From assembly GCA_963815195.1 (NCBI GenBank), contig CAWFGE010000019.1, positions 205,311 through 269,310 of the forward strand: a stretch of 64,000 nucleotides of DNA. The letters run 5' to 3'. Positions 17,201-20,104 of this stretch are shown in pieces. Made by a program: the position numbers and the translations under genes. The notes beneath the pieces were generated by a model that ran no database searches, was not told the origin of the DNA, and saw only the letters and a program-made list of their open reading frames with translations. The number at the start of each line of letters is the position of its first letter. Position 1 is the stretch's first letter. The stretch is from an uncultured Planctomycetaceae bacterium. GTDB taxonomy: Bacteria; Planctomycetota; Planctomycetia; Planctomycetales; Planctomycetaceae.

Positions 17201-17322
17201 CGGATCGAGGATTTTCTTCCGAAAACGATGTTTCTCCGCGGTCGAAATCCTCGGAATTCGTATGATACAATGCATTGACCACGGAAGAATTAAAAACTCA
17301 ATAGTTCCAAATTACGGTAAAA

Positions 17323-17536
17323 AGGACCGAAGGTCCGGGCCTATGTCAGCCCAGGGCAAGCGCAGCGCCGCCCTGGGTTATGGATGATAAATGAAACGCA
17401 AGCCCAGCGGGGCGGCCCTAGAGGGCACGCGCAGGGGCAGCTTCAATCCCACGCACGCATTACGTATCTTCGGTTTAGGACCGCCCCTTTGGGCCTATTG
17501 CATTTTGTTTGTTCCTGGTCCCCAGGGCTGCGCCCT
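17323..17536. repeat. REP/REPIN-like inverted repeat cluster (family A); right arm interrupted by IS110
   Basis: CTATGTCAGCCCAGGGC (17341-17357) is the reverse complement of the reconstructed GCCCTGGGCTGACATAG formed by joining 17532-17536 to 19193-19204. Confidence 0.8.
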
Positions 17537-17550
17537 TATAGGATTTGCTG

Positions 17551-17833
17551 AGGGATGGATCGGCCGCGGGAGAGGGCGGGGGACGCAAGTCTCTCCCCAC
17601 GGACTCTTCCGCGCCGGAGCCGATCCAGCGCCGTTTTTTTCCTGTTTTTCCAGCCCCAACTTTGAGAGGATCAAAATCAGGCACGCGTCGCCCCGCTACG
17701 AATCGTGCGCCCCATCGCTTCAACGATTGAGCCCAGACTTTCGAGCGGGACGATGCTCTTGGGAACCAACGAATCACTCCAGATGATGACGCCAAAACGT
17801 CTCGGACTATAAGGTTTTCGCCCGCTCCCAAGA
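17551..17833 (+). ncRNA. Predicted IS110 bridge RNA with target-binding and donor-binding loops (ends approximate)
   Basis: Guides TGCGCCC (17706-17712) and AGCCCAG (17730-17736) match the target; CAGATG (17780-17785) and CTATAAG (17807-17813) match the circle junction; each pair brackets a small hairpin inside a closing stem. Confidence 0.85.
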
Positions 17834-17882
17834 TCGCGTGCCCTTTTTGATTGTGTTTCACTTTAACAGGAGACGATCCCCC

Positions 17883-19164
17883 ATGCACTCGAATTTGCTC
17901 GACCCCAATGCCTGTGTGCTGATCGGCCTCGATTGGGCCGACCGCGAACATGCCGTCTGCCGGCTGCTTCCCGACGGCGGAACCGAACACCGGCAACTCG
18001 AACACACGCCCGAAGCGATTGCCGACTGGCTCGCCGGCCTGCGGAAGCAATTCCCCGGTCGCCCGATTCGGATCGCGTTGGAGCAAAGCTGCGGCGCGCT
18101 GATGAGCGCTCTGCCGTTTCGCCGACCTGGAACTCGAACTGTATCCCATCAATCCCAAGCAGCTGGCCCGCTATCGGGACGCGATTCATCCTTCGGGAGC
18201 GAAATCCGATCTAGACGATGCGCAGCTCTTGGCCCGCTTTCTGCAAAACCATCAGGAGCAACTCCTCCCGTTCGTGGCGGACGATCCCGAAACCCGCCGC
18301 CTGGCCGAGTTGTCCGAACTTCGCCGCAAGCTGGTCGATGACCGCAAAACCCTTGTGCAGAAGCTCGAAGGCACGCTCAAGCTGTATTTTCCGCAACTGC
18401 TCGAATGGTGTGCCGGGAAGAGTCGCCAACCCCTGTTGCTCGCCGTGCTTCGCCGCTGGCCGAGCTTGGGCGATCTTAAGCGGGCTCATCCCAAAACGCT
18501 TCGCACGTTCCTCGCCGAGCATGGCCTGCGGAACCCCGACCAGCAAACCGAGTGGATCGACAACGTCCGCCCCGCCACCCCGTTGACCGAGGATGCCAGT
18601 TTGATCGAACCCCGCGCGATGTACGCCCAAAGTCTCGGCCGGCAAATCGAGGAACTGAACGAGGCCATTGCCAAATTCGAGAAGCAACTGGACGAGGCGA
18701 CCGCCGCGCATCCCGACCACGAACTGTTCCGCTCGCTGCCCGGTGCCGGCGACGTCCTCACGCCGCGACTCATCGTGGCGATGGGCTCCGACCGGGACCG
18801 CTACCAAGACGCCGGGGACGTGCAATCCAAAAGCGGCATCGCCCCGATCACCAAGCAAAGCGGGAAGACCCGGCTCGTGTTGTCGCGAATCGCCTGCCCC
18901 AAATTTCTCCGGCAGACATTCCACGAGTTCGCCGACCAGGCCCGCCGCTGGAGCGATTGGTCCCGAGCGTTCTATCAAATGAAACGCGCGGCCGGCATGA
19001 GCCACCACGCCGCGGTCCGCGCCTTGGCCTTCAAATGGATTCGCATCATCTTTCGGATGTGGCAAACCGGCACCCCTTACTCGGAAATGAAGTACCAGGA
19101 ACAACTCACAATCAGAAACAGCCCCGTCTGGAATTTATTGGAAACAACAACAGAAACCACCTGA
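17883..19164 (+). CDS. IS110 DEDD recombinase/transposase (apparent frameshift near 18115)
   Basis: IGLDWADREH, IALEQ, INPKQ, KSDLDDA, SLPGAG, SGIAPITKQSGK, AVRALAFKWIRIIF. Confidence 0.95.
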
Positions 19165-19190
19165 AACCCACTTGAAAAAACCTCAGATGT

Positions 19191-19222
19191 CTGGGCTGAC
19201 ATAGGGCCGGGCCTTTGGCCCT
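19191..19222. repeat. Distal half of the REP family A arm split by IS110
   Basis: CTGGGCTGACATAGGGCCGGGCCTTTGGCCCT. Confidence 0.8.
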
Positions 19223-19249
19223 CAGAATCCTCTCGTTCATTTGTCGCCC

Positions 19250-20104
19250 ATGAACCCTTTAGCTTCACAACAGAATTCCGTGATCGATCAGGAACCGCCC
19301 TACTCTCCCGCCTGGCATCAAATGTTGGAACGCATGCTGGGAGCGGCGGCGTGCCGGCAGTTGGGGTTTTATTCCATCCCCTCCGATATGCTGCTCTCGG
19401 TGGTGATTCCCATCTACAACGAGGAAAAGACGCTGCGGGAAATCGTCGAGCGGGTGCGGGCGGTGCCGATCCGCAAGGAGATCGTGCTGGTCGATGATTG
19501 CAGCCAGGACAAATCCCGCGAACTGATGCAGCAAATCGCCGCCGATGTCGCCGACCAGGCCGACGAGATGAACCACATCGTCACCGCCTTTCACGAAGTC
19601 AACCGCGGCAAGGGGGCGGCCCTCCGGACGGGCTTTGAACATGTCGGCGGCGATGTGGTGATTATTCAAGACGCCGACTTGGAATACGATCCCTCCGAAT
19701 TTCCGCGGCTGCTTCAGCCCATCATCGAGAACAAAGCCGACGTGGTTTACGGCAGCCGATTTCTGGGCGACCAGCCGCACCGGGTGCTGTATTTCTGGCA
19801 TTACCTGGGCAACAAGGTTTTAACGACGTTGTCCAACTGCTTCACCAATCTGAACCTGACGGACATGGAAACCTGCTACAAAGTTTTCCGCCGGCAGGTG
19901 ATCGACGATGTCACGCCCCGGCTCAAGCAGAACCGCTTCGGCTTCGAACCGGAAATCACCGCCCGCATCGCCCGCCGGCGGTTCCGGGTTTTCGAAATGT
20001 CCGTCAGCTATTCCGGGCGGACTTACGAGCAGGGCAAGAAGATCGGCTGGCGGGACGGCGTCAAAGCCCTGTGGTGCATCATCCGCTACGGCGTTGCGGA
20101 TTGA
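19250..20104 (+). CDS. Glycosyltransferase family 2 (DPM1-like)
   Basis: [60 protein letters not shown]. Confidence 0.95.

Follow-up and report, generated by a model that had tools for sequence, protein, structure and literature searches.

The segment 17537-19190 of the window (the whole 64,000-nucleotide stretch of DNA analysed) is very probably an insertion sequence of the IS110 group whose left end encodes a bridge RNA (core, 17680-17842) that would operate under an IS621-like mechanism. This reading is carried by the anatomy of the element, a conserved and covarying fold, covariation of the guides with the flanking DNA, a single shared target, and the family membership of the protein. The element body is 1654 bp long (1656 bp with one copy of the core), and the copy in the window is degenerate. 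A CT core flanks the element on the left (17535-36) and on the right (19191-92), with no other target duplication. The left junction reads GCTGCGCC-CT-TATAGG (GCGCC-CT-TATAGG), and the right junction reads CAGATGT-CT-GGGCTGAC (CAGATGT-CT-GGGCT). The element, its ends and the two halves of its target were assigned as follows.

17521..17536, + strand, left half of the REP-like target: arm CCCAGGGC (17521-28), loop TGC, then GCC and the core CT (17535-36)
17537..19190, + strand, body of the IS110-group insertion sequence, with five genomic copies of 99-100% identity
17537-17882, + strand, non-coding left end of 346 nt, upstream of the transposase gene
17539..17544, + strand, -10-like TAGGAT, which has a -35-like partner, TTGAAA (19172-19177), across the circle junction only, with a 17-nt spacer
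17556..17627, + strand, long 5′ hairpin (z, -2.76) within the non-conserved leader
17883..19164, + strand, gene for an IS110-family DEDD transposase, a pseudogene here: it is split into two frames by a frameshifting deletion of 2 bp near 18105
19165..19192, + strand, short right end of 28 nt, with the -35-like TTGAAA (19172-77), the left donor CAGATGT (19184-90) and the core CT (19191-92)
19193..19222, + strand, right half of the REP-like target: GGGCTGACATAGG, then the hairpin CCGGGCCTTTGGCCC

The target is the 3′ arm of the hairpin CCCAGGGC-TGC-GCCCTGGG; next come CTGACATAGG and another hairpin. The same left flank was carried by 5/5 copies, and an unoccupied site at C12 reads CCCAGGGCTGCGCCCTGGGCTGACATAG; the two flanks of the window copy, when joined, reproduce this unoccupied site. 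The joined-flank 18-mer GCTGCGCCCTGGGCTGAC was searched for elsewhere in the same genome and gave one exact, seven one-mismatch and 11 two-mismatch occurrences, whereas the reversed pattern, used as the control, gave 0. The empty target that had been proposed by an earlier reading of the sequence alone (hereafter, the sequence-only reading) is thus a real site, found unoccupied in this genome. Mapping of the other genomic copies, which the same reading had proposed as a check, placed 5/5 in the 13-mer TGCGCCCTGGGCT. Unoccupied exact TGCGCCCTGGGCT sites were found only twice in 8.87 Mb, once in the repeat (at C12) and once in unrelated, non-REP sequence (C13:264238). In a census of the genome, 28 hairpins of the repeat family were counted, most of them with a 12-nt loop; because of this loop, most census hairpins are without the left target word, and the variant with the TGC loop was found unoccupied only once. 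The bridge-RNA reading explains both the five-copy repeat of this genome and the common location of its copies in one variant of a REP-like hairpin.

The REP-like repeat itself consists of a hairpin, GGCTGACATAGG, and a hairpin with a CCTTCGG-type loop. On the REP flanks, sub-threshold matches to the Rfam motif Acido-Lenti-1 were obtained at 17323-17356 (- strand) and 19182-19222 (+ strand), scoring 17-18 bits where the gathering score is 37, and the motif and the REP-like target may belong to one type of repeat. As context for this match, many relatives of the window element are from Acidobacteriota and one is from Lentisphaeria.

In the alignment of the five copies, the window copy alone was without a G near 17577 and without AC near 18105, and had five private substitutions. 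Damage was found in 3/5 copies, namely the window copy, the C15 copy (one additional A) and the C13 copy (a 301-bp internal deletion), and a full 427-aa open frame was found in two copies, one on C18 and another on C13, with one intact form lying at L002:1849-3129. The sequence-only reading had called for a repaired transposase in a recombination assay; with two intact copies elsewhere in the genome, this need does not arise. The window copy cannot make transposase. The region 17685-17833 is identical in 5/5 copies, and since the RNA and the ends of the window copy are those of the intact copies, it could be mobilised in trans. A tblastn search of the genome for further relatives of the transposase gave none beyond the five copies. 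At L007 1500-1578 (G000:C15:246467-246544), an isolated 80-nt remnant from the 3′ terminus of a related element was observed, with 77% identity and the last 20 nt identical; it terminates in CAGATGTCT, followed by unrelated ACTTACTTG instead of the REP target.

In the transposase, the Pfam domains PF01548 (DEDD_Tnp_IS110) and PF02371 (Transposase_20) were found, and the intact copy scored 171.9 bits, against a cut-off of 140, with NCBIfam NF033542, 'IS110 family RNA-guided transposase'; the NCBI family model thus already names such proteins 'RNA-guided transposase'. Among 30 homologues, D17, E67, D110 and D113 are invariant and S327 is nearly invariant (at least 90%). Among solved structures, the transposases of ISCro4 (E, 2e-9) and IS621 (E, 2e-7) are closest in sequence, both of them distant. 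The best match among these, ISCro4 (PDB 9t56), has the same two-domain layout; compared with it, about 80 extra residues (168-245) lie between the two matched parts. The ISCro4 and IS622 bridge recombinases are used for genome rearrangement (preprint 10.1101/2025.05.14.653916). PDB 9t56 probably belongs to this work.

The bridge RNA lies in the non-coding left end, and its parts were assigned as follows.

17680..17842, + strand, conserved core of the bridge RNA, a closing helix (P0) around two stem-loops
17681-84 / 17838-41, + strand, closing helix P0 (GCAC / GUGC), 89% paired, with 4/4 pairs covarying in homologues
17685..17756, + strand, target-binding stem-loop, from the fold and from covariation in homologues
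17706-12, + strand, left target guide UGCGCCC, the left target plus the core C
17714-17727, + strand, loop 1 hairpin ATCG-cttcaa-CGAT, between the two target guides
17730-36, + strand, right target guide AGCCCAG, reverse complement of CT+GGGCT
17737-38, + strand, handshake bases AC, directly 3′ of the right target guide
17757..17833, + strand, donor-binding stem-loop, from the fold and from conservation in homologues
17780-85, + strand, left donor guide CAGAUG, 6 nt (d1-d6)
17788-17801, + strand, loop 2 hairpin GACG-ccaaaa-CGTC, between the two donor guides
17807-13, + strand, right donor guide CUAUAAG, 7 nt, reverse complement of the core plus the right donor
17814, + strand, handshake base G, directly 3′ of the right donor guide and matching target t7

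The stems that close the loops are GCGTCG/CGATGC, CCCGCT/AGCGGG, CGAA/TTCG and TCTTGGGA/TCCCAAGA. The minimum-free-energy fold of 17680-17840 as RNA contained both stem-loops (-54.6 kcal/mol; z, -2.32; 5/200 shuffles as good). The guide words, hairpins and closing stems of the sequence-only reading were all found in place, and the fold returned the same two stem-loops. Its RNA extent (17685-17833) held good for both stem-loops; the core is wider, and that reading had included neither the 5′ hairpin nor the closing helix nor the handshake bases. The word AGCCCAGAC is the reverse complement of GT-CT-GGGCT, i.e. of the right-end/target junction, and CTATAAGG is the reverse complement of C-CT-TATAG, i.e. 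of the target/left-end junction. The left donor guide stops short of d7 and the core (RNA AUG versus DNA TCT), and the left target guide matches the core C and not the core T. Dinucleotide shuffles of the 347-nt left end were used as the null for the guide words. Single words were weak, the observed length being reached in 865 (left target), 486 (right target), 1339 (left donor) and 21 (right donor) of 5000 shuffles, whereas all four together were reached in 0/5000. Each guide word alone is within chance; the case rests mainly on the homologues.

No bridge RNA family was matched over 17300-19400 in Rfam 15 with E up to 1. The U-run after 17842 was tried as a terminator and rejected: it pairs with the A-run 17670-76 in the full-length fold and is not conserved in homologues. 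This pairing (17670-17676 with 17845-17851) extends the closing helix in the window element, and A-rich 5′ and U-rich 3′ flanks of the RNA core recur in several homologues.

Homologues were drawn from thousands of protein-search matches, the best with 55-70% identity and mostly on metagenome contigs of 1.7-2.4 kb. From these, 80 metagenome and 77 genome loci were taken; most of the named records come from Planctomycetota and Acidobacteriota, with which the planctomycete origin suggested by the sequence-only reading is consistent. Conservation of the left end at the DNA level was limited to positions ~145-306 (17680-17841 of the window), with blastn matches in 33/157 loci. In an alignment of 17 sequences, loop 1 was hypervariable and loop 2 kept CAGATG and CTATAAGG; RNAalifold gave 37 pairs for this alignment, 23 of them with compensatory changes. 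A covariance model was built from the same 17 sequences and located the RNA immediately ahead of the transposase gene (76 matches/92 sources, and 76/77), so that about 150 homologous elements carry the same RNA (152 covariance-model matches, a count that overstates independence since the homologues are related). In a second set, the alignment of which was fitted to the covariance model and thereby favours the structure, 95.1% of cells were paired and a compensatory change was seen in 31/37 pairs, with a stem covariation score of 0.523 versus 0.168 in shuffles (0/500 as high) and 0.086 or less with partners slid; an independent MAFFT alignment agrees. The closing helix P0 was 89% paired in 60 distinct rows, with a score of 0.566 versus 0.215 in shuffles. 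G-U pairs are frequent in the stems (e.g. GU in 13 and 11 of 60 rows in helix 1), and because they would be C-A on the other strand, they point to an RNA of the + strand. In some genomes, tandem copies of a related element were observed 1.7-2 kb apart: L145 (984, 2715), L198 (1003, 3001) and L156/L159 (overlapping loci).

For the comparison of guides with flanking DNA, the loop sides were taken by column from the model alignments, and the element ends were located by loop 2 alone, using a match of at least 7 nt upstream to the reverse complement of its 3′ side and a match of its 5′ side downstream of the gene. From the 152 model matches, nine short or incomplete rows were removed, and the remaining 143 rows gave 115 distinct loop-1 guide pairs, 95 of them with a left flank and 84 with a right junction. 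The longest word shared by the loop-1 5′ side and the left flank averaged 6.8 nt for an element's own flank (n = 95) and 3.4 nt for those of other elements, and a word of at least 6 was present in 74/95 own and 261/8922 other comparisons. For the reverse complement of the loop-1 3′ side and the right junction, the corresponding means were 7.7 nt (own, n = 84) and 3.6 nt (other), with a word of at least 7 in 70/84 own and 137/6948 other comparisons.

Position by position, the right side agreed at 0.85-0.99 over the core and r1-r5, against 0.25-0.31 for non-cognate r1-r5, and was at background at r6 and r7; the right target guide is therefore 7 nt long. On the left side, agreement was 0.69-0.86 over t7-t2, versus 0.26-0.47, and 0.51 at t1. 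The base opposite the core T was at background in the family (0.23 versus 0.27), and the core C is the second-last base of the loop-1 5′ side in 53/74 well-matched elements, as it is in the window. From this profile, the UGCGCCC of the window (t2-t7 plus the core C) is typical of the family. The two bases after GATG in the left donor guide vary freely. In 52/59 elements, both junctions and both right guides have CT as the core. Non-CT cores were found in four relatives and had changed at all four places together (GT in L168 and L174; CC in L191; TG in L188). In 3/59 elements, the ends of which were called by script, the cores were inconsistent, and these are probably mis-called ends.

These results bear directly on what the sequence-only reading had put forward. 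It had given both loops 7-nt right guides; CTATAAG is 7 nt long in the window, and the right target guide is backed at each position of the core and r1-r5. Its expectation that guides and targets would covary was borne out, loop 1 following the flanks of the element to which it belongs, with conservation of loop 2 and of the ends. Homologues with other targets and identical loops would have counted against it, and the opposite was found. One distant relative of the same phylum (L030, G244; 34% protein identity) has guides for, and is located in, GGGCTTCGCC-CT-GGGCT, almost the same repeat, and the variant GCTTCGCCCTGGGCTGAC is also present unoccupied in the genome of the window.

In IS621, each right guide is followed on its 3′ side by two bases that, once strands have been exchanged, pair with the other DNA; pairing with their own DNA inhibits the reaction (Hiraizumi 2024, PMC11208158). 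In the window, the AC after AGCCCAG is the reverse complement of the donor GT (d6-d7), the 9-mer equalling the right-end/target junction, and the G after CTATAAG matches target t7. Handshake agreement in the family was 0.96 (own) versus 0.54 (non-cognate) at d7 (n = 71), and 0.88 versus 0.48 at t7 (n = 95), the t7 figure being perhaps slightly inflated, as the t7-matching base may form part of the word by which the left end was found. With their own cognate DNA, the handshake bases agreed at only 0.08 and 0.04. Only the core-adjacent base covaries on each side; d6 and t6 were at family background, including the second match of the window (d6).

The structure in the left end could be taken for a mere leader of the transposase mRNA, serving translational or stability control, with guide matches due to chance or composition. 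The ribosome-binding site and start codon come directly after it, and each guide word is reached by 0.4-27% of shuffles. Among the sequencing runs listed as containing the stretch, no RNA run was found. In such a leader, however, the letters of loop 1 need not follow the element's own flanks, on opposite strands for the two sides and stopping exactly at r5, nor need loop 2 match both element ends or the core change at four places at once, and we consider this explanation extremely improbable. The many G-U stem pairs, which point to + strand RNA, also speak against the proposal that the guide-like words act as DNA (subterminal transposase sites or DNA hairpins) and not as RNA. Words that match the ends are classically found at the DNA sites of transposons, but the target lies outside the element, and words matching it would serve no purpose as protein sites within. 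In its architecture the element moreover equals IS621, whose RNA was shown to be required (Durrant 2024, PMC11208160), and an action as DNA is accordingly rated as very improbable.

A different question is whether a genuine bridge RNA family is represented here by an element that is inactive in this genome, its copies being relics of past spread. The damage in 3/5 copies would fit, as would the result that no circle junction or empty-site joint was found in four metagenome DNA runs, where the search covered contigs only, which drop rare forms, and detected no circle or empty-site polymorphism. The copies are nevertheless 99-100% identical, two of them have the full 427-aa frame, and the RNA region is identical in 5/5. 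Near-identical elements were also found in soil and wetland metagenomes from several studies, and in the four DNA runs they are of the intact type, with G at 17577, two bases more than the window copy at 18105, and the majority letter wherever that copy has a private substitution. Inactivity is thus judged unlikely.

Under the preferred reading, i.e. an element with a working bridge RNA, RNA production, the circle, its promoter, the chemistry and programmability would be as in the rest of the family. The element would be excised as a circle, with the predicted junction CAGATGT-CT-TATAGG formed by its two ends, and the joining of the right end to the left end would create a promoter-like site reading into the left end. 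The transcript would fold into the 5′ hairpin and then into two stem-loops closed by a short helix. The internal loop of loop 1 would pair with both strands of the target TGCGCC-CT-GGGCT in the REP-like hairpin, that of loop 2 would pair with the circle junction CAGATGT-CT-TATAG, and the DEDD/serine transposase would exchange strands at the CT core.

For IS621, excision reconstitutes a promoter (Durrant 2024, PMC11208160). In the window element, the junction site obtained in silico, TTGAAA-17-TAGGAT, has 9/12 matches, is weak, and is 2 nt out of the family register. Using a script with the same criteria as the promoter tool, a junction-spanning sigma-70-like site was found in 48/69 unique reconstructed circles versus 4/69 integrated left junctions, the family site being typically TTGAC[A/G/T]-17-TATAGT. 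A promoter scan of linear 17300-19400 gave 0 promoter-like sites. Between the left end and the conserved RNA lies a non-conserved leader of ~135 nt, and the leaders of 102 homologues were more structured than shuffles (median z, -1.67; 44% below -2).

The sequence-only reading had likened the two-loop layout, the CT core and the REP targeting to IS621, and the strand rules do match those given in Durrant 2024 (PMC11208160). IS621 (E. coli) has in common with the window element a long left end that carries the RNA ahead of the gene, a short right end, and an RNA layout in which a 5′ hairpin precedes two stem-loops, each with an internal loop. Also shared are a variable loop 1 and a conserved loop 2, 5′ sides in top-strand sense and 3′ sides in antisense including the CT core, handshake bases after the right guides, and a REP-like target; a promoter at the circle junction, predicted here, would be a further point in common. 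Membership of the window element in this known class of RNA-guided recombinase mechanism is supported, and the known mechanism is unchanged by it.

The two systems differ in several respects. The IS621 protein has 328 aa versus 427 aa here, with distant similarity (E, 2e-7), and the right target guide is naturally 7 nt here versus 4 in wild-type IS621. The left donor guide here is without the core and d7, the left target guide is without a match to the core T, and a leader of ~135 nt precedes the RNA core. The covarying closing helix found here was not found described for IS621 in the consulted portions of Durrant 2024 and Hiraizumi 2024.

The ISfinder cluster ISCfr13/ISCps4/ISCps5/ISEsa2, which is row 373, a 'Multiple Phyla' cluster, of Supplementary Table 1 in Durrant 2024 (PMC11208160), shares the motifs ALEQSRGAL, PSGAKSDPSDA and PKFxRQTFHE with the transposase in a by-eye comparison of the printed domain strings, and is probably the nearest named clade. 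Because the printed domain strings of this cluster share transposase motifs, the clade is taken to be already in the Durrant 2024 data set. The exact N-terminal transposase motif was not found in the searched part of that supplement, where related motifs only were present; the tree table of the same paper contains 31 Planctomycetes proteins. A literature search found no paper combining IS110, Planctomycetes and 'bridge RNA'.

Among other elements, ISPpu9 and ISPpu10 of Pseudomonas putida, IS110 elements with REP sequences as insertion sites, likewise occur several times per genome, each copy within the same conserved palindromic repeat between genes (PMC12288879; 10.64898/2026.03.19.712850), but belong to another host phylum and another repeat. 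The IS1111 group shares the DEDD transposase family and the RNA-guided logic. Elements of that group have long right ends, short left ends and subterminal inverted repeats of 7-17 bp (Durrant 2024, PMC11208160), and their RNA lies downstream of the gene. With its left end of 346 nt, its right end of 28 nt and a conserved RNA upstream of the gene, the window element is therefore not of the IS1111 type.

It is possible, though on balance doubtful, that the element stands for an uncharacterised clade of bridge recombinases, common in soil Planctomycetota and Acidobacteriota, in which recognition geometry and specificity could differ from those of IS621. Such a clade would be marked by a 427-aa enzyme with an extra segment of ~80 residues, a covarying closing helix that ties the two loops into a three-way junction, a right target guide that is naturally 7 nt long, handshakes of one base each, and left guides by which the second base of the core is not read. 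Bridge recombinases are under development as programmable tools for the insertion, deletion and inversion of DNA without double-strand breaks. The window element is a well-supported natural example from a distant clade, in which target, donor, handshake bases and core can be read directly, a reading confirmed by ~100 natural pairs of guide and target from homologues. Together they form a ready sequence set for probing the effects of guide length, core pairing and the closing helix on specificity.

In four related elements of Acidobacteriota type, two tandem target-binding stem-loops per left end were observed, at L091 253-347 and 405-580, L185 827-935 and 978-1153, L170 881-945 and 1022-1189, and L182 ~893 and 1002-1180. 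Such relatives may have two target specificities and may thus carry a natural two-target bridge RNA. Their tandem loops share the right target guide (reverse complement of CTATCCTC), and the left guides differ, being CGCAGAGCC or CGCGGAGCC, and CGCGTTGCC. The sites of L091 and L182 match the second loop, and the flank of L170 fits the first loop somewhat better.
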